From NCBI GenBank assembly GCA_000092065.1, contig CP000581.1: 64,000 bases of DNA; one strand, given 5' to 3'. The stretch's first letter is position 1, and every line of letters begins with the position of its first letter. The stretch comes from Ostreococcus lucimarinus. Taxonomy: Eukaryota. Under the pieces are notes generated by a model, which was not told the origin of the DNA, ran no database searches, and worked only from the letters and a program-made list of their open reading frames with translations. Shown here piece by piece: positions 33,291-45,071 of this stretch. The translations under genes were made by a program, and so were the position numbers.

Positions 33291-34354
33291 GCCGCAACTT
33301 CGTGCGATGCTGGAAGAGCCGTGGCCCGGACTGCCCGCTCCAAGTCGTGTGCGTGAACCAATCCGGCGGCGCCAAGCCGGCGGCGCACTTGCTCAAGTAC
33401 GACTCCATCTTGGGTACGTTCAAGTCTGACGTCAAGGTTGTCGACGACGCCACGATCTCCGTCGATGGTGACATCATCAAGGTTGTGTCCGATCGCGACC
33501 CGCTCAACTTGCCGTGGAAGGAAATGGGCATCGACATCGTCATCGAAGGTACGGGCGTCTTCCTCGACGGCCCGGGCGCGGGCAAGCACATCCAAGCCGG
33601 CGCCAAGAAGGTTGTTATCACCGCCCCGGCCAAGGGCTCCGACATCCCGACCTACGTCGTCGGTGTGAACGCCGACCAATACGACAACTCTGCCAACATT
33701 GTCTCCAACGCGTCGTGCACCACCAACTGCTTGGCGCCGTTCGCCAAGGTGATCGACGACAAGTTCGGCATCGTCAAGGGTACGATGACCACCACGCACT
33801 CTTACACTGGTGATCAACGCATCTTGGATGCGTCCCACCGTGACTTGCGCCGTGCTCGTGCCGCCGCCTTGAACATCGTGCCGACCTCCACCGGTGCCGC
33901 CAAGGCTGTTGCGCTCGTCTTGCCGCAACTCAAGGGTAAGCTCAACGGTATCGCGCTTCGCGTGCCGACGCCGAACGTGTCCGTCGTCGACCTCGTCGTC
34001 AACGTTGAGAAGAAGGGCGTCACCGCTGAAGAAGTCAACGCCGCGTTCAAGGAAGCGCAAGATGGCCCGATGAAGGGTGTTCTTGCGATCACCGATGTCC
34101 CGCTCGTGTCTGTCGATTTCCGGTGCACCGACGTGTCCACCACCATTGACGCGGCTCTCACCATGGTGATGGGCGATGACATGGTCAAGGTTGTCGCGTG
34201 GTATGACAACGAATGGGGTTACACCCAACGCGTCGTCGACCTCTCCCTCATCGTCGCCAACGGCCTCATCAACGAAGGTGTTGCCTCCGCCGACCCGATG
34301 GACCAACTCTGCGCGGATGATCCCTCGGCGGACGAATGCAAGGTGTTCGATTAA
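33291..34354 (+). CDS. gapB: Glyceraldehyde-3-phosphate dehydrogenase, plastid GapB-type (main exon) with a CP12-like C-terminal extension
   Basis: Canonical GAPDH blocks: [10 protein letters not shown] (catalytic Cys), [10 protein letters not shown] and WYDNEWGY. Then a roughly 30-aa tail ending [20 protein letters not shown], with the two Cys of the GapB/CP12 redox tail. The track ORF begins on GTG at 33302. Confidence 0.85.
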
Positions 34355-34692
34355 ACCATTTTTTCGATCAACTTCATCGAGCGATGTTGGCGAGTGGACG
34401 AGGCGTGAGACGTAATTATTACGTCGTTGCGCCCTTGATTTCTCGCGCGATTTACCAGCGTATTAACACACACTTCTGTAATCAGAATCTAGAGACAGAT
34501 TTGAAAGAACCGCGTTCGCCTCGACGTAATTTTTCCGTCTCGACTCGAAAGCGCTGTACTTAACGTGGCGTCCTGCAAAGTTGCATTACAAATATATTGA
34601 ATCAATGACCTGTCGTCGATGAAAGAATATCACGAAATGAAGACGAGCGCGCGTCTCGATTGTCGTGTGCGCGTGCGAGAGGATGGGGATGG

Positions 34693-35715
34693 TCACAGGA
34701 TTGGATTTTCGCCCGAGAAGGACATTTGAGCGGTTATGGCGCTCAGCTTTTGGGTGAGCAGATAGTTGGCCATCTGTACGCCTTCTGCGCTACCCGAGAT
34801 GACGACTTTTCGATTGCGCGTGCCTTCGAAGAAGTCGTCGCGGTCACTGACTTTGATGCGGCACCCGCTCGCGACTTGAACCTCGGCAATGGTGCGGCCG
34901 CCGCGACCGAGCACGGCGCCGATGAGCGAGTCGGGGATGGTGACGAGGATGGAAGTCTCGTCATCCCTCCCACCGCCCTGACCGGCGCCATAACGTCGTG
35001 GCGTGGCGCGATTAAATTCGCCGCTTCTCCGTCCGCCTCCACCACCTTGCAACGAAAGCGGCGATTGCACGCTGTACGTACTCTGTCGATGCACGAGGGT
35101 GGCGTACGCGGGATCTTCGCACAGCGTCGTCGCCACGAGAGCCACCGCTCGTAAAACGCAATCAATCGTTCCAGTGATCGTCAGCGTGCGATCATTACAC
35201 CCGGGAAGCATCCGATCTTGATTACTCAGCTTAATGTCCGCCTGCGAATCCTCCACAAAGCTTCGTATCTTCGATCCGCCCTTCCCGATGATGCACCCGC
35301 ACGAGCTGTTGGGCACCACCAGCGCCACCTGAGGCTGTCCCATGCGATCGATGCCCTCGCCGTCCGCCACCAGCTTCGTGATGATCAAGTGCAACACCTG
35401 CAATATCGCGCTCAGATCCCCGCTCACGATCACCACGCGATCATTCGTCCCCGGAAACACCTCGCGATTCCTCGACAACTGAATGCGCGCCCCCGTGAGC
35501 GCCTGAAACTCGTTGATCGTCGCCCCTCCCTTCCCGATCACGCTCCCCGCCGCGCTCGGCGAGATCAAAAACTTGAGCGTGAACGATCCATCGTCGATCG
35601 GCGCCGCGCTCTCCCCGCCGTCGTCGCTCGCGTCACCGCCCGCGTCGTCCGCGTCGCGCGCCGCGTTCCCATCGTCGCCGCGCGCGTCGCGCGCGCCGTC
35701 GTCGTTCGACGACAT
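34693..35715 (-). CDS. Triple KH-domain RNA-binding protein (PCBP/hnRNP-K/Nova-like)
   Basis: Three KH cores: VIGKGGATINEF, IIGKGGSKIRSF, VLGRGGRTIAEV. ATG at 35713-35715 (MSSNDDG). A longer form from ATG 35907 is possible; the track ORF extends to 36042. Confidence 0.7.
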   Translation of the reverse strand: MSSNDDGARDARGDDGNAARDADDAGGDASDDGGESAAPIDDGSFTLKFLISPSAAGSVIGKGGATINEFQALTGARIQLSRNREVFPGTNDRVVIVSGDLSAILQVLHLIITKLVADGEGIDRMGQPQVALVVPNSSCGCIIGKGGSKIRSFVEDSQADIKLSNQDRMLPGCNDRTLTITGTIDCVLRAVALVATTLCEDPAYATLVHRQSTYSVQSPLSLQGGGGGRRSGEFNRATPRRYGAGQGGGRDDETSILVTIPDSLIGAVLGRGGRTIAEVQVASGCRIKVSDRDDFFEGTRNRKVVISGSAEGVQMANYLLTQKLSAITAQMSFSGENPIL

Positions 35716-35956
35716 CCGCCGCGCGCGCGACGCCGCGACGCCGCGACGCCGCGGTCCGACCGTCCGACCGTCCGACCGTCCGGTCGCGCGGTCGCGCGGT
35801 CGCTCGGTCGCGCGTCGTCGACGCGTCGCCGTGTCGCGCGCGCGCGCCGACGTGCTGACGCGACGCTGACGCGGACGCGCCGCGGGCGATCCGCACGCGG
35901 GTCTCATCACATGGGCCCGAACGCGCGTTAAACGCGGGGAAATCTTCGTAAAGGAG

Positions 35957-37716
35957 TGCGGGTGACATAACAAGTTGGAGTGATCAAAGCATCGTCTAGT
36001 CCAAAGCGAGCACGGTGATATCCGAGCAATCGCGGCCGTCATCCGCGAGGACGCACTCGAATCGAGCCAACATCGTCTTCATTTTACTCCTCGTGATGCT
36101 CGCGGGCGTGAGTTTCTTGAGTCTTTCCTGGTCGCCGAGACTCGCCCCGCGTTCTTCTTTCATCTTCTCCCAGTCCTCGGCGGAACGAATTCCAACACAC
36201 AACTCTTCGGAGTTATACTTCGCGAGGCATTCTAAACGAGCTTCAATCATTATCATACCAGGCGACTTGCCTAAGCCACAGTCGCAGTGCAGCGTCGTCC
36301 AGGATCGCATGTGACGCAAGACTTCTGGGCTCCCGAAATCCCAAGTCTCGCCCGGGAGCTTGTTGACATCGGCACACCCTGAACCGTAGTCATCGTATGA
36401 CAGTGCGAACGCATGCGCTTCGCCTTTCATACTGAGTTCGTTGATGGCCTGCGCTACACGTTCTTGTTCCATCGGGTGAGGACCGTAATTCAAAGCGAGC
36501 CGCTGGATTTTCAGCGTCGTCGGCGACGCGCGCCAGAAGACTTGGCCCGAGTTGAAATTCCAAGCGTCTTGATGGTGTTGTTTAGCGTTCTCATTCTTTT
36601 GCATATATGGGTAGCGTCCACGGTACAGCGCGTTATATCCGATCCAGTCTTGTTGATAAAACACATTTGTGCGCGGATGTTCGCGGACTAAACGCCCCAA
36701 GTCTGGGACTTTAAAAAGGAGAACATCCGTGTCGAAGATGAAAAAGTCCACATTCGCGGCGAGCAATCCGAGAGTGACTTTTTGTTTGAACCAAGTCAGC
36801 TGTTTGTATTTGAGGTCGTCGGCGTGCCCGCCCGAGTGCACCAAGCCGTCGAACGCGTGCCCGTCGGCGTATTGCAAGCAGTGAAACAGCTTCTCGCTTT
36901 CGCACTTCCTCGTCGCGTCGGCGTCCAGCGTGATCAAAATGTACCGCTCAATGAAGCACGTTTGATTCACAACGCGCTGCGTCGATAATTTGGCGGTCTC
37001 ATAGTTTTCCGAATCCGCGATGGAGACAAAGAGCGTGTTCGCCGGCGCGCACGACGACGGCGTCTTCGCGCGCTGCTGCGCAAACGGGTGCAACTGTTTA
37101 TACCACGAGCAATCCCTCGGCGTGATCTTGTGTTCGGTCTCGTGTGCCCTGTCATCGTCTCCGTTCATCGCGTTCGGGTAGTCGCTCGTCATCGCCGGCA
37201 GGCACGACAAGTTGCCGCCGACGCGCTCGAAGTCGTAAAAGTCGCCGCCGAGCGTGGCGGCGTCCCCTTCCAAATCCATCGCGTCCGCCTTCGCCGAGCG
37301 CGCGCGCGCGCCGAGCGGTTGGACGGACGCATCGCGCGCGGAGTTGACGCTCGAGACGATCGCCGCCCCGACGAGGAGCGCGCACGCCGAGCCGACCGCG
37401 AGCGTCGTCTTCAGGCTCAGGCTCGAGCGTCGACTTTGGTGTTGCGCGCGATCCGTCGCGGTCAACGACGCCGGCGCGTCGACCAAGGGCGCGGACTCCT
37501 CGAGCGAGCCCGACATGGTGATCTCTTGGATATCCTTGGATCTCTTGACTTAGAGTCGACGGACGAGCGAGCGATGTGCCGAACTGTGCCGCTCGCTCGC
37601 GGAGGGTGTTCAGACGGAGTGCTCGTCGAAGCGGTTCGCGAAGCAAACAGCCGCGTCGGCGGAAACGAACGAGCGAAGTCACCGCTCAGCTCGAGACACG
37701 CCTGGATCTGACGATA
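35957..37716. repeat. Tandem segmental duplication, copy 1 (about 1760 bp). Contains glycosyltransferase gene copy 1 plus about 40 bp of 3' flank and about 200 bp of 5' flank.
   Basis: About 99% identical to 37822..39581 (period 1865 bp). The copies are separated by a unique spacer of about 105 bp (37717..37821). Confidence 0.9.
35996..37516 (-). CDS. Type-II membrane glycosyltransferase, copy 1 (N-terminal signal anchor plus a lumenal nucleotide-diphospho-sugar-transferase-like domain with a DxD motif)
   Basis: 506-aa ORF from ATG. Single TM near the N-terminus (LAVGSACALLVGAAIVSSV). DxD in FIFDTDVLLF and Cys-rich C-terminus. The family (GT77-like, Nucleotid_trans) is inferred by eye only. 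Confidence 0.6.
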   Translation of the reverse strand: MSGSLEESAPLVDAPASLTATDRAQHQSRRSSLSLKTTLAVGSACALLVGAAIVSSVNSARDASVQPLGARARSAKADAMDLEGDAATLGGDFYDFERVGGNLSCLPAMTSDYPNAMNGDDDRAHETEHKITPRDCSWYKQLHPFAQQRAKTPSSCAPANTLFVSIADSENYETAKLSTQRVVNQTCFIERYILITLDADATRKCESEKLFHCLQYADGHAFDGLVHSGGHADDLKYKQLTWFKQKVTLGLLAANVDFFIFDTDVLLFKVPDLGRLVREHPRTNVFYQQDWIGYNALYRGRYPYMQKNENAKQHHQDAWNFNSGQVFWRASPTTLKIQRLALNYGPHPMEQERVAQAINELSMKGEAHAFALSYDDYGSGCADVNKLPGETWDFGSPEVLRHMRSWTTLHCDCGLGKSPGMIMIEARLECLAKYNSEELCVGIRSAEDWEKMKEERGASLGDQERLKKLTPASITRSKMKTMLARFECVLADDGRDCSDITVLALD

Positions 37717-37821
37717 TTAAACATGGACACAGGCTTAGCCGAGGCGAGAGGCGTAGCTCGAGCGTCTAGACCTCGGCGACGATCGCTTTCGCCACCGCCG
37801 CGCTCGGAGGCGCTTTCCCGG

Positions 37822-39581
37822 TGCGGGTGACATAACAAGTTGGAGTGATCAAATCATCGTCTAGTCCAAAGCGAGCACGGTGATATCCGAGCAATCGCGG
37901 CCGTCATCCGCGAGGACGCACTCGAATCGAGCTAACATCGTCTTCATTTTACTCCTCGTGATGCTTGCAGGCGTGAGTTTCTTGAGTCTTTCCTGGTCGC
38001 CGAGACTCGCCCCGCGTTCTTCTTTCATCTTCTCCCAGTCCTCGGCGGAACGAATTCCAACACACAACTCTTCGGAGTTATACTTCGCGAGGCATTCTAA
38101 ACGAGCTTCAATCATTATCATACCAGGCGACTTGCCTAAGCCACAGTCGCAGTGCAGCGTCGTCCAGGATCGCATGTGACGCAAGACTTCTGGGCTCCCG
38201 AAATCCCAAGTCTCGCCCGGGAGCTTGTTGACATCGGCACACCCTGAACCGTAGTCATCGTATGACAGTGCGAACGCATGCGCTTCGCCTTTCATACTGA
38301 GTTCGTTGATGGCCTGCGCTACACGTTCTTGTTCCATCGGGTGAGGACCGTAATTCAAAGCGAGCCGCTGGATTTTCAGCGTCGTCGGCGACGCGCGCCA
38401 GAAGACTTGGCCCGAGTTGAAATTCCAAGCGTCTTGATGGTGTTGTTTAGCGTACTCATTCTTTTGCATATATGGGTAGCGTCCACGGTACAGCGCGTTA
38501 TATCCCACCTGGCCTTGTTGATAAAACACATTTGTGTGCGGATGTTTGCGGAGTAAAAGCCCCAAGTCTGGGACTTTAAAAAGGAGAACATCCGTGTCGA
38601 AGATGAAAAAGTCCACATTCGCGGCGAGCAAACCGAGAGTGACTTTTTGTTTGAACCAAGTCAGCTGTTTGTATTTGAGGTCGTCGGCGTGCCCGCCCGA
38701 GTGCACCAAGCCGTCGAACGCGTGCCCGTCGGCGTATTGCAAGCAGTGAAACAGCTTCTCGCTTTCGCACTTCCTCGTCGCGTCGGCGTCCAGCGTGATC
38801 AAAATGTACCGCTCAATGAAGCACTTTTGATTCACAACGCGCTGCGTCGATAATTTGGCGATGTCATAGTTTTCCGAATCCGCGATGGAGACAAAGAGCG
38901 TGTTCGCCGGCGCGCACGACGACGGCGTCTTCGCGCGCTGCTGCGCAAACGGGTGCAACTGTTTATACCACGAGCAATCCCTCGGCGTGATCTTGTGTTC
39001 GGTCTCGTGTGCCCTGTCATCGTCTCCGTTCATCGCGTTCGGGTAGTCGCTCGTCATCGCCGGCAGGCACGACAAGTTGCCGCCGACGCGCTCGAAGTCG
39101 TAAAAGTCGCCGCCGAGCGTGGCGGCGTCCCCTTCCAAATCCATCGCGTCCGCCTTCGCCGAGCGCGCGCGCGCGCCGAGCGGTTGGACGGACGCATCGC
39201 GCGCGGAGTTGACGCTCGAGACGATCGCCGCCCCGACGAGGAGCGCGCACGCCGAGCCGACCGCGAGCGTCGTCTTCAGGCTCAGGCTCGAGCGTCGACT
39301 TTGGTGTTGCGCGCGATCCGTCGCGGTCAACGACGCCGGCGCGTCGACCAAGGGCGCGGACTCCTCGAGCGAGCCTGACATGGTGATCTCTTGGATATCC
39401 TTGGATCTCTTGACTTAGGGTCGACGGACGAGCGAGCGATGTGCCGAACTGTGCCGCTCGCTCGCGGAGGGTGTTCAGACGGAGTGCTCGTCGAAGCGGT
39501 TCGCGAAGCAAACAGCTGCGTCGGCGGAAACGAACGAGCGAAGTCACCGCTCAGCTCGAGACACGCCTGGATCTGACGATA
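37822..39581. repeat. Tandem segmental duplication, copy 2
   Basis: See copy 1. Same flanks (gtgcgggtgacataacaagttggagtgatcaaa... at the 3' side; ...cgcctggatctgacgatat at the 5' side). Confidence 0.9.
37861..39381 (-). CDS. Type-II membrane glycosyltransferase, copy 2 (paralogue of 35996..37516)
   Basis: 506 aa. Differs from copy 1 at roughly 11 residues concentrated in three patches (ENYETAKL/ENYDIAKL and QTC/QKC; GRLVREHPRT...QQDWIGYN/GLLLRKHPHT...QQGQVGYN; ENAKQ/EYAKQ), plus a few synonymous changes near the 3' end. Confidence 0.6.
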   Translation of the reverse strand: MSGSLEESAPLVDAPASLTATDRAQHQSRRSSLSLKTTLAVGSACALLVGAAIVSSVNSARDASVQPLGARARSAKADAMDLEGDAATLGGDFYDFERVGGNLSCLPAMTSDYPNAMNGDDDRAHETEHKITPRDCSWYKQLHPFAQQRAKTPSSCAPANTLFVSIADSENYDIAKLSTQRVVNQKCFIERYILITLDADATRKCESEKLFHCLQYADGHAFDGLVHSGGHADDLKYKQLTWFKQKVTLGLLAANVDFFIFDTDVLLFKVPDLGLLLRKHPHTNVFYQQGQVGYNALYRGRYPYMQKNEYAKQHHQDAWNFNSGQVFWRASPTTLKIQRLALNYGPHPMEQERVAQAINELSMKGEAHAFALSYDDYGSGCADVNKLPGETWDFGSPEVLRHMRSWTTLHCDCGLGKSPGMIMIEARLECLAKYNSEELCVGIRSAEDWEKMKEERGASLGDQERLKKLTPASITRSKMKTMLARFECVLADDGRDCSDITVLALD

Positions 39582-39715
39582 TACGCAACGCTATCGCGCG
39601 ATCGCCCGCCCGGCTCGACCCGTCGTCGCGCGGCGCCAACGTGTGCGGCGGCGATGAAACCACGCGCGAGCGCGGCGCGCGCGCGAGAGCGGCGCGCGCG
39701 GCGCGCGCGCGGGCG

Positions 39716-40387
39716 ATGAAGCGACCCGGGATCGCGCGCGCGGACGCGCGCGACGCGCCGTCGACGTCGTCGGACGCGATCGACGCGCGCGCGGCGAAAA
39801 AGGCGCGCGCGAACGCCGCGGGTGGACTGCTCGCGAGCATCCTCGGCGACGTGAAGCGATCGAACGCGCAGCGCGCGAAGACGGTCGTCGCGAGCGGCGG
39901 ACGCGCGATCACGAGGGATGACGTCGTGTCTCGGGAGACGAAAGCGATGGAGGCGCGAAGGAAGTTTGAGAGGGAGGTGCGGGAGAGGATCGAGCGAGAG
40001 GTGGCGGGGAGCGAGAGCGCGGAGGCGTTTTGCGAGTTTGAGACGATGGAGAAGCAGTGGAGGAACATCGTGCACGAAATCGCGGCGGAGATGAAGTTGT
40101 TTTCGGAGAGCGTGGAGGTAGGGGCGACGGGGGAGGAGAAGTTTGTGATTGTGCATAAGAAGGCGCCGGAGGTGGAGCGAGACGCGGAGTCGTTGCGAAA
40201 CGAAATCGCGGCGAGAGAGCGGGCGGGAAAACACGGTAAAAAGGGAGAGGGGTTGAGCGATAAAGCGCCGACGTACGCGGCAGATGCGGTTGAGTTGACA
40301 GTTGTGGGTACGGTGAAGCGAGACTTGCGGTCGGTGGAGGAAACGATTGCGGATATGCGCAAAGCTCGCGAGAAGACGGACGCTTGA
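39716..40387 (+). CDS. SPAG7-like R3H-domain protein
   Basis: Collinear with animal SPAG7: GLLASILGDVKRS, EARRKFEREVRERIEREV, R3H core WRNIVHEIAAEM (R-x3-H) and KFVIVHKK. First ATG at 39716; the track ORF starts on GTG at 39641. Confidence 0.6.
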   Translation: MKRPGIARADARDAPSTSSDAIDARAAKKARANAAGGLLASILGDVKRSNAQRAKTVVASGGRAITRDDVVSRETKAMEARRKFEREVRERIEREVAGSESAEAFCEFETMEKQWRNIVHEIAAEMKLFSESVEVGATGEEKFVIVHKKAPEVERDAESLRNEIAARERAGKHGKKGEGLSDKAPTYAADAVELTVVGTVKRDLRSVEETIADMRKAREKTDA

Positions 40388-40433
40388 GTCGAGACCCTTC
40401 TAATAACAAATCGCTACGACGTATTAGGCTTAT

Positions 40434-43400
40434 TTACAGCTCATCTTTCACGTCTTCTGTTTTATCGCCGACGCGCATGCGTTCTTCGACTCGTTCGGTG
40501 AACGCGCGAACCTCCGCGTCCAAACCTGGCCACTCTTGAACGATGCGTCGCGCGCCTTCAAGTTTTGGCTCCTTCGTGAGCGGGTTGTTACACAAATCGA
40601 TCGTCTTCGCCGCAGATTTGGTCTCATTCCCACACCACGATTCGCACCACAGCCAGGGCTGCGGTAACGAAAAGATTGGCACGTCGTGCTGCGCGTAGTT
40701 TGGCAAGTCTTGATCGAGGTTCGCCAACGAACCCGGATCTCGCGAAAGTTGGTCGTACATAACTCTCAATCTATCGCCAGCCGCCATAGCGCGAAAACGA
40801 TCGAGATCCACGACGTACAGCGCACTAATATGGTACGGCCTACCTCGTAAGTGATCTCGCCAGAAGCCCTGTTTCCAAAATCTAAAGCCTTCCATTTCTT
40901 TGTTGTTGTCGCACATCGGCGTGTACCCGTACGGCGCACCGTGAAGATCCATGGTCCAAAGTTCGCTCATATCCGCTCGAACAATTTGATCGGCATCGAC
41001 AAAAATAACTTTGTTGAGCTCGAGTGGGAACAGTACGTCGAGGAACAGAATCTTATACGCCCAGATGATTCTTTGCTTCTCCGTTTGCTTGTTCAGCCAC
41101 GTCGGCCACTTGTAGCTCACGAGCTCATACTCAAAGTCGTACTCCTTTGCCATGTACGGTAAGAAATCTTTAAAGGACGGCGAAAGCCAGTTTTTGATGA
41201 ACCAGAATTTCACCGGATTCTTCGTCGAGCGCTTGACGGATGCCATCATAATTTTCAAGAATCGCTCGTACAGATGACCGGAGGCAACGCTAAAGATGTG
41301 AATACGGTCTGCCTCCTTCGTCCTCTTGAATACACTCGACAACCATCCACTATTGTCTGAGGTTGAAACTTCGTCGAGTACGTCAAGATCTTCCTTACCT
41401 TTCCGTCTCGCAAGAGATACGTCAAGTTGCCGCCCTCTGAAAGAGTCCACTAATACGTCGACGGTGGATTCGTCGTGCGAAAGCGTCAAGTCTCGCGCCT
41501 CCGAGTCGAGAAGATCTTTCACCTGAAGAAATGCGAATATGTCCGACGATCTACCAGCTCGAAGTGACAACTTGTGCATTCCAGGTGAGGCTGGAAGCTG
41601 AAAATAACCCAAGTTCGACATCACGATTGTGCCTGGATTCACGGCCACGCTCTTATCCTCGAGCACGAACTGTGTCCCTCTCGCCGGTTGACCCGTGTTG
41701 TGATCACTTGCGTGGCCAGTGACTAGCAGAGACTCGAGCAAGTACTCTGCGTGCACAGTCTTCTCCTTGATGTCTTTGAGAATCAGGTTATCCAAATCAT
41801 ATGCCGCCCTGTGAGTCGTCACCATCCACGCTTCTGGGAAATCTACGTGCATCGTGAGCGTCTTGTGGGTCGGAACATTGGTGATGAATGCACGAGGTGA
41901 TTCCGTCATCGACGACGGTGGCGCAACATAGCGGTAGTACGACTTCAACGGTAAATCCTGCAAATTCGTCATGGGATTAAGGACGACTCGAATGGTCACC
42001 GCTTCTGGCAATCGGTCTCGAAGTAGCGCGAGCACCGGCGCGACGCGTTGCGCCTCCTTACTCAAAGGATCGAGAATGGCCTCAATCTGAACGATAGTTC
42101 CGGAGCCAGTGACAAAACTTGTTGCTTTCGCGTCGTTAATGATTTCCTCCAAACTTTCCACCGTTCGCTTCGTGGATGCGCCGGCTTGTTTCATCGCAAC
42201 AATTGCTGCGGCGTCTGAGATGATGGTCGACAACAAAGCCGGTTCCATCTCCTCGGCGTCTGAGAGGATTTCTTCTTTCACCACGTCGAATACCATTTTA
42301 GATGTTTTTGTCATCTCGATGGCGGCGAGAACGTCCAGGTCTTCGGCATCCATTTGACATTGTCTGGCCATCAGATCCAGGACCCTTCCATTCGCAATAA
42401 CGGCGCACTTCGATGTCAAGTCGTAATGAGCCAGTAGTCGAAGACTTTGCGTCGCGACGTCGGCAAAAATCGTCTCGTCGCTATACAGTCGCTTAAAATC
42501 GACCAAATTCAGCCCCATTCGCTCCGCCGCATCCTCGGGCTTCACATCTTCTGCCAAGAGTTGCTCAACGAAATTGGCAATCTTAGCCCGTCGCGTAGGC
42601 AGATGCAACGCGGCTTGAATCGCGCGCGAGCGCGCTCCCATCGTCGCAGCTGCCGATGGATGAACTACTGTAAATCGCGAAAGCGAACCAGATTCGGACA
42701 ACACGTGCTTTGCAGCCGCCAGGATCAAAAGTGCGCCCCTATCACTGTCAGCGTTGGCTACGACGACGATGGACATACCTTTCACTTCGTCTGCATCGCC
42801 GCCTTGAGCGTACTTGAGCGAAGCGATTGACGAACGGTCGATGGGTAATCGATACACCGGTGCGACATCATCCTCATCCAATATCCAAGGAACATACTTA
42901 GAAACCGCTCCTTCTTGCATGAACTTCGCCACATTTTCGAGCAGGGCGCCGGCAAGTTTTCCCGCAACAACGAGTCTTCGAACTTTCTCCATCTCCTGGC
43001 GCAAGTGGTGCGATACCATTTGCTCCAACGATGCGCGATACGCCATACCTTGCGATTCATCGACGTACACACCGTTCAATACGAACGACTGTGTCATCAA
43101 GCCTTTCGCCTTCACGGCGGCGCGGACTTCGTCGATGTACTTGTCGATGCTCGTTGACGAACGAGATGCGAACTCTTCGAGCAACGTCACCGCATCAAAT
43201 TCGAGATCATCGGCAAATTCTGACAGTGTTTTCTCGAACGCATCCATCGCACCTTCCCAAGACGGCGGAGAATATACCGCGGGCGCGAAGTACGACGGTG
43301 GTCTTTCTTCCGTACGACTTTGCGCTACGTAAGACATGAAATTGTGCTGTGCGACAGGCCCATATTCGCGCAATAAGTAATTTGCGGCACGTGCAACGCG

Positions 43401-45071
43401 ACGTCCGAAAACTAGGTCCGTTTGCTTCGCAAACGTCTGAGCGAGGACGGGATCAGGGTTATCTAACCCTGTGACGACGACTTGAGCCATTCGCACCGGT
43501 ACTTTGTGATCGTAGAAATGGGACATCATCCCAACCATATCCCACGTCGACATGTCTGACGGATCCAGGAAAACGGCCATATTGTAGAGATTGTACCTCA
43601 CTTTCGGAAATCCGCCTCGCGAAGGTTCGAGCAACGTTTTCAAATTCCTAGTCCACGAAGCGAACTTCGCGTCGGCCTCGATGTCGTTGTAAAACAGGAT
43701 TGCCGGGTTCGTCACGTCAATCTTGACCTCAGAGCTTCGCTGCTTTTTGGGCAAGCGAAGAAGCCTTGAAACGCTCGATTGCGGCAACCCAAGACGACGA
43801 AGCGCAGCGGCGTGCTGTACCTCCTTTGATATGGTCTCCGTCAAGGTGTAGATGTCGATGGTGTCGAGTTCTAAATTCTCGCCGTTGAGCGACATGATCA
43901 ACCCTCCGGGACGCATGTTTTTGCGATTTTTCGTCACTTCATTAACGATTGTCGAATTCAGTTTCATGCGAGACAATGAGTTCGCTAAAGAAGGGAAATT
44001 TTGCGAGAGCTCGACCAGGGCTCGGAGAGGATCGTCGGAGAGCGAGATGCGCTGCGTCGCCTGCAAGCCTAAATCCTTGATATCCCACAATTTCAGAGGC
44101 GCATCCGAGGTCAGCTCCGACTTTCCAACCATCGCGTCGCGAAATGCGCGTAGACCATCGACTTCGTTCGGATATCTCTTTGCTAATGTAGCGAAATTAA
44201 ATCCCGACACGCTCTCGTCTGCGAGCTCGTCGCCGAGCGGCGCCGACGCGTCGTCGTCCGCATCAGCCTCTTCGGCCTTGACCTTGCTATCATCAATCGC
44301 CTTGTACTCCATATTTTTCACCGCGAGCTCGACACCGAATCCGGCCAGGCGCAAGTTGGCGTCGTCAGACGCCCCGAACGCAGCGCACGAATCTCTTCTC
44401 GCGCACGCCGTCTCGAACAGTACCGGTCTTAAAACGTAGTTCACCAGACCGGACTCGCTCGCATCGACTAAAACGCGGTGCATCGAGTTAAAACACGCCG
44501 TCCCGGGCGCGGCGTACGCGAAAGCCGTCGGCAACGTCGCATTGAGCGCACCGCCGTACGTCGCGTCGCGTTCCGTCGCGCTCCCGCTCGCGCTCGCCGC
44601 GCCCGCGCGCACCGCCCCCTCCAGCGCCCCCGTGTCGTCATACACCGCCCCCCCCAACTCCACGCGACAGCATCCACCGCTCGCATCGCTCAGCGCCGCC
44701 GCCATCGTCCGAAAACTCGCCAGTCTCGGCGAGTACGCTCGCGCGCCGCGCGCCAATCCCAACGCCCGCGCGCGTCCATCGTCCCCGAGCGCCCGTCGTC
44801 CCGCCTCGTCCACGCGCGCCTCGCACGTCGCGTCATCGCTCGCGTCGCCATCGATCGGCGCGTCCAGATCGTCGACGAGCGTCCAGAACGCCGCGCCATC
44901 GACGTCCGCGACGCCGACCAGCGTTTCCAACGCGAACGACGTCGCGCGCCATCCCGCGCGCAGCGCGACGTCGATCGATTTCGCGCCCGCCGCGCCGCGC
45001 GCGAGCGCGCACGCGACGAGCAGCGACGCGATCGCGCGGCGCGCGCGCGCGCGCGGCGTCTCGACGCGCAT
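40434..45071 (-). CDS. UDP-glucose:glycoprotein glucosyltransferase (UGGT, ER folding sensor) with a signal peptide and a C-terminal KDEL
   Basis: 1545 aa. N-terminal signal (MRVETPRARARRAIASLLVACALARGAAGA). C-terminal GT8-like catalytic domain (FVDADQIVRADMSELW...LWCESWCG). The last four residues are KDEL. Confidence 0.85.
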   Translation of the reverse strand: MRVETPRARARRAIASLLVACALARGAAGAKSIDVALRAGWRATSFALETLVGVADVDGAAFWTLVDDLDAPIDGDASDDATCEARVDEAGRRALGDDGRARALGLARGARAYSPRLASFRTMAAALSDASGGCCRVELGGAVYDDTGALEGAVRAGAASASGSATERDATYGGALNATLPTAFAYAAPGTACFNSMHRVLVDASESGLVNYVLRPVLFETACARRDSCAAFGASDDANLRLAGFGVELAVKNMEYKAIDDSKVKAEEADADDDASAPLGDELADESVSGFNFATLAKRYPNEVDGLRAFRDAMVGKSELTSDAPLKLWDIKDLGLQATQRISLSDDPLRALVELSQNFPSLANSLSRMKLNSTIVNEVTKNRKNMRPGGLIMSLNGENLELDTIDIYTLTETISKEVQHAAALRRLGLPQSSVSRLLRLPKKQRSSEVKIDVTNPAILFYNDIEADAKFASWTRNLKTLLEPSRGGFPKVRYNLYNMAVFLDPSDMSTWDMVGMMSHFYDHKVPVRMAQVVVTGLDNPDPVLAQTFAKQTDLVFGRRVARAANYLLREYGPVAQHNFMSYVAQSRTEERPPSYFAPAVYSPPSWEGAMDAFEKTLSEFADDLEFDAVTLLEEFASRSSTSIDKYIDEVRAAVKAKGLMTQSFVLNGVYVDESQGMAYRASLEQMVSHHLRQEMEKVRRLVVAGKLAGALLENVAKFMQEGAVSKYVPWILDEDDVAPVYRLPIDRSSIASLKYAQGGDADEVKGMSIVVVANADSDRGALLILAAAKHVLSESGSLSRFTVVHPSAAATMGARSRAIQAALHLPTRRAKIANFVEQLLAEDVKPEDAAERMGLNLVDFKRLYSDETIFADVATQSLRLLAHYDLTSKCAVIANGRVLDLMARQCQMDAEDLDVLAAIEMTKTSKMVFDVVKEEILSDAEEMEPALLSTIISDAAAIVAMKQAGASTKRTVESLEEIINDAKATSFVTGSGTIVQIEAILDPLSKEAQRVAPVLALLRDRLPEAVTIRVVLNPMTNLQDLPLKSYYRYVAPPSSMTESPRAFITNVPTHKTLTMHVDFPEAWMVTTHRAAYDLDNLILKDIKEKTVHAEYLLESLLVTGHASDHNTGQPARGTQFVLEDKSVAVNPGTIVMSNLGYFQLPASPGMHKLSLRAGRSSDIFAFLQVKDLLDSEARDLTLSHDESTVDVLVDSFRGRQLDVSLARRKGKEDLDVLDEVSTSDNSGWLSSVFKRTKEADRIHIFSVASGHLYERFLKIMMASVKRSTKNPVKFWFIKNWLSPSFKDFLPYMAKEYDFEYELVSYKWPTWLNKQTEKQRIIWAYKILFLDVLFPLELNKVIFVDADQIVRADMSELWTMDLHGAPYGYTPMCDNNKEMEGFRFWKQGFWRDHLRGRPYHISALYVVDLDRFRAMAAGDRLRVMYDQLSRDPGSLANLDQDLPNYAQHDVPIFSLPQPWLWCESWCGNETKSAAKTIDLCNNPLTKEPKLEGARRIVQEWPGLDAEVRAFTERVEERMRVGDKTEDVKDEL

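Follow-up and report, generated by a model that had tools for sequence, protein, structure and literature searches.

The long- and middle-wave opsin genes of primates evolve in concert, and their spectral-tuning sites remain distinct. Tandem glycosyltransferase genes are known from Ostreococcus tauri, where a small outlier chromosome carries 6–13 tandem copies of a 2.5-kb PF04572 glycosyltransferase unit (PMC5498103) and where the glycosyltransferases reported to change expression in virus-resistant lines are all on chromosomes 19 and 2 (PMC5082852). The GT77 glycosyltransferases fall into clades that include prasinophyte members, and clade D is of unknown activity (PMC3797821). Here we describe a tandem pair of glycosyltransferase genes of the GT77 type (Pfam PF03407) in Ostreococcus lucimarinus CCE9901, found in a stretch of 64,000 nucleotides of contig CP000581.1 (assembly GCA_000092065.1) that we call the window. 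The two copies are alike almost throughout, and their differences cluster in one short coding patch. The pair is probably a new example of concerted evolution, a well-known phenomenon, in which a dimorphic patch, probably functional, has been retained.

The pair lies in two direct repeats on the minus strand with a period of 1865 bp, at positions 35956–37717 and 37821–39582 of the window (1762 bp each, by ungapped comparison at an offset of 1865). Unit A is the downstream copy, which adjoins a KH-domain gene, and it consists of a 201-bp 5' flank, the coding sequence (CDS) and a 40-bp 3' flank. There are 21 differences in 1762 bp inside its bounds, and identity drops sharply beyond them. Unit B is the upstream copy and adjoins an R3H-like gene and the gene for UGGT. 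Both copies have an intact open reading frame (ORF) of 506 amino acids (aa) on the minus strand, at 35996–37516 in copy A and 37861–39381 in copy B. The exact protein of copy A is also encoded on metagenome contigs, and an exact-sequence look-up identified copy B as XP_001415783.1 / ABO94075.1, a 'predicted protein' of CCE9901 on a record of 1,152,508 bp. The duplicated 5' flank of copy A (37517–37717, minus strand), presumably promoter and 5' untranslated region, has 2 differences from its counterpart in copy B at 39382–39582. Between the units is the duplication junction, a spacer (37718–37820, minus strand) without a match to either flank or to the rest of the window. An initial annotation of this DNA had described intact 506-aa genes in two units of period 1865 with a shared 5' flank and a unique spacer of 105 bp. 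We recovered the units with bounds within about 1 bp of that description and a 5' flank of 201 bp; the spacer is unique as described, with a length of 103 bp instead of 105. There is no third paralogue within the window.

The units are 98.8% identical, and 18 of the 21 differences are in the CDS; the initial annotation had put the total at about 15. It had, in turn, listed exactly the amino-acid differences that we found, including its smaller patches at ETAKL/DIAKL, QTC/QKC and ENAKQ/EYAKQ. These are 11 in number, from A to B: E173D, T174I, T186K, R275L, V277L, E279K, R282H, D290G, W291Q, I292V and N310Y. Five further differences are purely synonymous (codons 2, 250, 471, 472 and 483). Nine differences fall inside 53 bp, at 36641–36693 (codons 275–292). 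When we placed 21 differences uniformly 200,000 times, no placement put 9 of them into 53 bp (mean 3.2, maximum 8). The clustering had been described as nine differences in about 80 bp, so it is real and tighter than described. The variable patch is RLVREHPRTNVFYQQDWI in copy A (36641–36694, minus strand; patch type RLVREHPRT...DWI), where 8.5 of the differences count as nonsynonymous, and its equivalent in copy B is LLLRKHPHTNVFYQQGQV (38506–38559, minus strand; patch type LLLRKHPHT...GQV).

The two proteins match Pfam PF03407 (Nucleotid_trans) at 50.8 bits (E = 2.8e-13, copy A) and 50.0 bits (E = 4.8e-13, copy B), above the gathering cut-off of 22, which bears out the glycosyltransferase-like identity first proposed for them. 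In copy A the match covers aa 188–377 (36386–36955, minus strand), and it was also found in 30 of 30 aligned relatives. Both copies have a GT-A (Rossmann-like nucleotide-diphospho-sugar transferase) fold and a DxD motif, and we classify them as metal-dependent, putatively single-pass GT-A glycosyltransferases of the PF03407 family. Across the family alignment of 30 sequences D262, D264, Q288 and G324 are invariant, and N322, Q325, Q351 and H410 are nearly so. The invariant Asp pair forms the DxD motif D262-T-D264, at 36725–36733 in copy A and 38590–38598 in copy B, and the FNSGQ motif, aa 321–325, follows the patch at 36542–36556 in copy A (all minus strand).

The patch sits between these two motifs. 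Its predicted structure is a helix (273–279), a loop, a strand (285–289, VFYQQ) and then three residues. Residues 275–283 differ between species, and the subfamily shows no variation at F286, Y287, Q288, Q289, G293 and Y294. Most of the 30 family members have Asp or Glu at position 290, and position 291 is Trp in 8 of 9 subfamily sequences besides copy B, the other being Tyr in protein P0008. Just past the invariant Gln288, copy B has Gly-Gln-Val in place of the conserved Asp-Trp-Ile. The patch thus adjoins the catalytic motifs and alters conserved residues, in a region for which the initial annotation had suggested a substrate- or acceptor-specificity loop. In GT8 enzymes an Asp at the matching strand end lines the sugar pocket, and D290 may be its equivalent. 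An hhalign comparison with human glycogenin (sequence identical to 3t7m) pairs FNSGQ with CFNSG and E350-Q351 with D163-Q164, at a probability of 6–10% that is too weak to map the residues of the patch.

We looked for the duplication in other assemblies with exact-protein look-ups, which gave many independent assemblies. Among them, a 1.13-Mb contig from the Joint Genome Institute (JGI), locus L011, and several metagenome contigs have the same gene order as CCE9901. L011 comes from a different strain, with 4–5 differences per copy from CCE9901. It carries the B type upstream and the A type downstream, the same as CCE9901. An identical 344-bp intergenic sequence that includes the spacer is present in L011, L013, L017, L019, L020 and L023. 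The duplication has a single origin and is older than the divergence of the wild lineages compared. Among the short metagenome contigs, which stop at the ends of the repeat, both kinds of flank are found. Seven loci from different samples (L022, L025 and L027–L031) have a single glycosyltransferase gene between the R3H-like and KH genes. These are either a real polymorphism of one or two copies, as an ancestral state or through deletion by unequal crossing-over, or a collapse in assembly.

Six patch haplotypes occur in the wild among all of the loci compared; a pattern search of the metagenomes for the patch gave one further contig, L032. We write them as residues 275, 277, 279 and 282, then 290–292. 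RVER/DWI is found downstream in CCE9901 and in L011, and in L013 and others. LVER/DWI, in L017–L019, is nearest to the outgroup. LLKH/GWV, in the single-copy contigs L027–L031, is intermediate between DWI and GQV. The remaining three are LLKH/GQV (CCE9901 upstream), LLEH/GQV (L011 upstream) and RLEH/GQV (L020–L025 and L032). Using outgroup codons from a species with an 82%-identical protein, P0002, and from others, we found V277L, D290G, W291Q and I292V to be derived on B, and L275R and H282R to be derived on A. Codons 290–292 can be ordered in steps, from GAC TGG ATC to GGC TGG GTC to GGC CAG GTG.

The rest of the gene behaves differently from the patch. Outside it, the CDSs of the paralogues have 9 differences in CCE9901 and 3 in L011. 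The L017 lineage, which has the same junction and whose two copies may be collapsed, is at least 17 sites and a 6-bp indel away from either CCE9901 copy. The paralogues resemble each other more than either resembles its counterpart in a lineage with the same junction, which points to homogenisation after the duplication and to gene conversion as what keeps the copies alike. The single-copy haplotype of L027 is a mosaic of sites from L017, CCE9901 upstream and CCE9901 downstream, which shows frequent exchange. A cluster of three synonymous differences between the copies in 39 bp (codons 471, 472 and 483; 36068–36106, minus strand in copy A) has the look of a further short tract of exchange; at codon 471 CCE9901 copy A has a state of its own, and the states at codons 472 and 483 occur in other wild haplotypes. 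A duplication of single, shared origin with paralogues more alike than the gene is between lineages is what concerted evolution leaves behind. The initial annotation had offered a recent duplication or ongoing conversion. Conversion with one segment spared fits well, and a simple recent duplication fits less well.

Tandem duplication with partial homogenisation recurs in this family. A related species, with proteins that are 65% identical, has its own tandem pair between TrmE-like and DnaJ/Sec63 genes (L007, 8188–9687 and 10001–11506; loci L007–L010), and this pair looks independent of the one in O. lucimarinus. The 245-bp promoter and the first 880 bp or so of the CDS are nearly identical between its copies (2 differences), and the last 620 bp or so are about 11% divergent. 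The switch is at about codon 295, just past where the patch lies in O. lucimarinus, and differences are most concentrated in the loop 298–322, so the paralogues again differ just beyond the DxD-proximal strand. Both copies have Gly at position 290. The gene neighbourhood of family members differs among four species or lineages: Sulfotransfer_2/DUF8234, TrmE/DnaJ-Sec63, R3H/KH and HAD-like (L006, L007, L011 and L026). Paralogues seem to have been relocated or differentially lost in a genus usually called syntenic.

To ask how the differences fall on coding sites, we counted them by the Nei–Gojobori method. Copies A and B have 12.5 nonsynonymous differences (Nd) in 1178.5 sites and 5.5 synonymous differences (Sd) in 339.5 sites. 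That most differences are nonsynonymous, as first claimed, is true by count, and as a signal it is roughly the neutral expectation. The gene outside the patch has an Nd of 4/1136 and an Sd of 5/328, for a ratio of nonsynonymous to synonymous rates (dN/dS, omega) of about 0.23. The patch (54 nt) has Nd of 8.5/42.7 and Sd of 0.5/11.3, with a point estimate of about 4.5. Compared with the remainder of the gene, the patch is strongly enriched in nonsynonymous differences (odds ratio 65, p = 7e-10); the synonymous rate of the gene itself would predict only 0.65 there (P = 4.5e-7). The ratio of nonsynonymous to synonymous changes (N:S) in the patch rejects only omega values up to 0.35 (p <= 0.05). 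The nonsynonymous excess over neighbouring neutral sites might also be explained by an old haplotype that was retained. If the patch were an old relic under the long-term constraint of the family, with an omega of 0.3, about 7.5 synonymous differences would be predicted and at most 1 is present (P = 0.005); the same model at an omega of 0.65 is not rejected.

We also compared the diversity of the pair (35956–39582) with that of its flanks (33302–35715 and 39641–45071) at loci L011, L017, L020, L023 and L027. Between the L017 lineage and CCE9901 the glycosyltransferase gene has 18 substitutions in 1515 bp (N 14.8 : S 3.2) plus the indel, and four flanking genes together have 11 in 7461 bp (N 5 : S 6). 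The difference is significant (Fisher p = 6e-8; N:S contrast p = 0.048), for a single haplotype pair and not corrected for demography. The gene is about 8-fold more divergent than the flanking genes, mainly at nonsynonymous sites, where about 15 changes were observed and 4.2 were expected from the flanks' synonymous rate (P = 3e-5). Such an island of diversity is consistent with an old recombining polymorphism under diversifying or balancing selection, or with recombination-associated clustered mutation together with weak constraint. Taken gene by gene, UGGT, R3H-like, KH and GAPDH are 99.8–100% identical between CCE9901 and the wild haplotypes, and the glycosyltransferase differs by up to 1.2–1.6%.

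We think it somewhat probable, at a little better than an even chance, that the two copies are isoenzymes differing in sugar or acceptor recognition, with selection keeping the patch distinct while conversion removes other differences. One 1.87-kb duplication, including the 201-bp promoter region, would have made the pair before the wild O. lucimarinus lineages split. Conversion between the copies, and probably unequal crossing-over, would then have held identity at about 99%. A 53-bp segment, residues 275–292, would have stayed apart as an A form (V277, R282, D290-W291-I292) and a B form (L277, H282, G290-Q291-V292), both presumably reached by stepwise point substitutions on the two lineages. 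From these patterns we infer conversion as the homogeniser, selection as the cause of the persistence of the patch, and a difference in specificity. A related possibility, to which we give a smaller chance, is a balanced recombining polymorphism in which patch form and copy number set a surface or scale glycan epitope under frequency-dependent selection by prasinoviruses or grazers.

Several points weigh against functional isoenzymes. The whole-gene dN/dS between the copies is 0.65 and not different from 1 (Fisher p = 0.26), and the 8.5 N against 0.5 S of the patch fit neutrality (p = 0.41–0.67), the patch being too short to prove a dN/dS above 1. The diversifying selection first proposed is therefore a candidate only: neither of these tests is significant, although the nonsynonymous excess over the flanking genes is. 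Residues 275–283 vary freely across species, so the patch may in part just be weakly constrained. The mapping of GT8 residues depends on the low-confidence profile alignment described above. Copy-to-patch assignment is resolved in two genomes only, CCE9901 and L011. In metagenomes there are pairs with identical copies, both A-type in L013 and both B-type in L020–L024 and L032. If real, these would mean that the patch can be homogenised, but they are indistinguishable from a loop-collapse by the assembler. We considered reading complete homogenisation from L013 and L020–L024 and rejected it: assemblers may merge variants and then traverse an a-b-a loop, so interior differences of identical-copy metagenome contigs cannot be trusted. 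In L017 and L019 the differences retained within a pair are only within about 100 bp of the repeat end, as collapse would give. Finally, we found no paper on the protein accessions or on gene conversion or diversity at this locus.

Much of the same evidence can be read without any functional difference or selection. The patch could be a weakly constrained surface element that collected clustered mutations, multi-nucleotide or repair-associated, with the density of mismatches then hindering heteroduplex formation and stopping conversion tracts. We judge this unlikely, at about one chance in four. The patch N:S is equal to the neutral expectation. Position 310 varies freely across species along with residues 275–283, and gene-wide omega against the nearest other species is already 0.63–0.66. 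Elsewhere in the gene, codons 239, 348 and 391–392 are changed at 2–3 nucleotides together in wild haplotypes, which suggests a clustered mutation process, and the boundary between homogenised and diverged sequence in the related species' pair, at about nt 880 and beside the patch, fits a conversion breakpoint rather than selection. However, half of the patch changes are at conserved residues near the invariant Q288 (D/E290 family-wide, W291 in the subfamily), and both forms occupy matching positions in two strains and are found widely in wild populations. The intermediate haplotype shows that the same three codons changed in two or more successive rounds, and the nonsynonymous divergence is above the yardstick set by the flanking genes.

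Clustered, multi-nucleotide differences are also what would be expected if a diverged paralogue or another Ostreococcus species had donated the patch, by ectopic conversion or introgression. Two residues of the B form, G290 and V292, do occur in P0005 and P0006 of another species, and several states of the L017 lineage match those of the species with P0002 (for example ATC at codon 348 and TCG at codon 505). We consider an import quite improbable. No donor was found, either as a third paralogue in the window or as a CCE9901 family match beyond the 90% cluster. The synonymous sites interleaved with the patch changes agree in A and B and differ in the species with G-W-V (TTG TTC ... GGA TGG GTC GGT TAC), which disfavours a donor of that type because its tract would need to be 8 nt or less, and the GWV intermediate favours stepwise change in place. 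It is less probable still that copy B is simply decaying, with D290G and W291Q harming the active site in an early stage of pseudogenisation. Copy B has lost a conserved acidic residue and a conserved tryptophan, has the same promoter and is otherwise redundant. But its ORF, like that of all wild haplotypes, is intact, and omega outside the patch is low. The index of the collection has the B-type protein P0012 in 60 blocks, of which we read 24 contigs, and some contigs that seem to be single-copy have the B type alone. Gly290 in both copies of the related species is compatible with a retained gene. As for a mis-assembly of CCE9901 having created the pair or its differences, near-identical 1.8-kb repeats are error-prone, and short contigs do break at the repeat ends. 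We exclude it for practical purposes because the spacer junction and both outer flanks recur in many independent assemblies, including wild genomes, and L011 repeats the patch types in position; the duplication is genuine. The reading that we prefer remains that of two isoenzymes kept distinct in the patch.

There are also smaller differences between the copies. E173D, T174I and T186K lie at 36959–37000 (minus strand), and T186K abolishes the N184-Q-T sequon in copy B. Codons 184–186 read N-Q-T in copy A (36959–36967) and N-Q-K in copy B (38824–38832), and the site is polymorphic in the wild. N310Y (36587–36589, minus strand) is in a low-confidence loop of the structure model, with a mean predicted local distance difference test score (pLDDT) of 64 for residues 301–310.

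A single hydrophobic segment at aa 37–57, TTLAVGSACALLVGAAIVSSV, is a putative signal anchor (37346–37408 in copy A and 39211–39273 in copy B, minus strand). It has the top Kyte–Doolittle 19-residue window (2.16), is the only such segment, and is preceded by basic ...SRRSSLSLK. C-terminal to it there are 13 Cys and 2 sequons, and residues 1–91 are disordered in the structure model. These features would fit a signal-anchored lumenal (type II-like) enzyme. Past the Pfam match is a Cys-containing C-terminal extension of about 130 residues (aa ~380–506). The family is narrow, with 51 relatives at E <= 1e-3 in a profile search of 1.84 billion representatives. PF03407 was the sole Pfam family at E <= 1, so that Glyco_transf_8 of GT8 was not matched; NCBIfam gave no match for the glycosyltransferase, and the family profile found no relative of solved structure in the PDB by sequence. 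The structural relatives of the protein are retaining enzymes.

The genes around the pair are, in order, UGGT, R3H-like, the two glycosyltransferases, KH-domain and GAPDH. The local guanine-plus-cytosine (GC) content of 0.58–0.61 is the same as in the remaining window, and there is no tRNA or notable tandem repeat near the pair. The UGGT gene is next but one (1545 aa, 40434–45071, minus strand). Solved homologues of UGGT are the best structural match to the glycosyltransferase model, and we considered whether the pair could have originated from this gene. We rejected this because BLASTP shows no similarity between the window proteins; the proximity and the structural match are a coincidence of fold rather than a local duplication. 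On the other side, the longest ORF of the KH-domain gene (449 aa, 34693–36042, minus strand) overlaps the 3' end of the copy A CDS by 47 bp. The gene can be called either from that start or from an internal start at 35715 (340 aa), and with the internal start, the promoter region of the KH gene is probably the 3' flank of copy A.

Ostreococcus is a model for adaptive variation in tiny phytoplankton that look nearly clonal. Hypervariability has been known there mainly from outlier chromosomes, and here it is a short island amid near-invariant housekeeping genes on a standard chromosome. If the two forms differ in specificity, the 11 residues, 7 of them in an 18-residue patch, may reveal how acceptor or donor is chosen in a GT77-type subfamily. 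If they do not, the locus cleanly illustrates, in a compact algal genome, where conversion tracts end and how mutations cluster. We regard it as a candidate for selection on cell glycans and, as a hypothesis only, for glycan-based virus interactions. Should the balanced-polymorphism reading be true, a determinant of host range would lie elsewhere than on the outlier 'immunity' chromosome already known.

How close is the locus to known systems? Its likeness to the retaining GT-A enzymes of GT8 and GT24 (glycogenin, LgtC, GlyE, XXYLT1 and the UGGT catalytic domain) is structural only, with an identity of 8–16%. Unlike them, our proteins have a long insert (aa 293–320) between the strand and FNSGQ, and they have no GT8 Pfam match. 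They are closer to the PF03407/GT77 enzymes, which include the plant RRA and XEG113 extensin arabinosyltransferases and the RGXT xylosyltransferases, and share with them the domain, the DxD motif, the GT-A fold and, putatively, one N-terminal anchor. They differ from these in belonging to a narrow subfamily and in the Cys-containing C-terminal extension. The O. tauri outlier glycosyltransferases are similar as a locus: they are in the same genus, in a tandem unit of about 2 kb, with recent or ongoing change in copy number and high intraspecific variability. Here, in contrast, the Pfam family is another one, there are two copies only, and the pair is on a standard 1.15-Mb chromosome record. The location and GC content are ordinary and the neighbours are housekeeping genes (UGGT, GAPDH and the KH protein), so nothing marks an outlier chromosome, and the virus-resistance theme raised in the initial annotation is left without support.

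The closest match in kind is the opsin pair. There too the copies are near-identical, including non-coding flank, and differ in a short paralogue-specific coding segment that bears on function, as the patch here may, and there too recombinant haplotypes and copy-number variants occur. The difference is that in O. lucimarinus the assignment of patch to copy comes from two genomes only.

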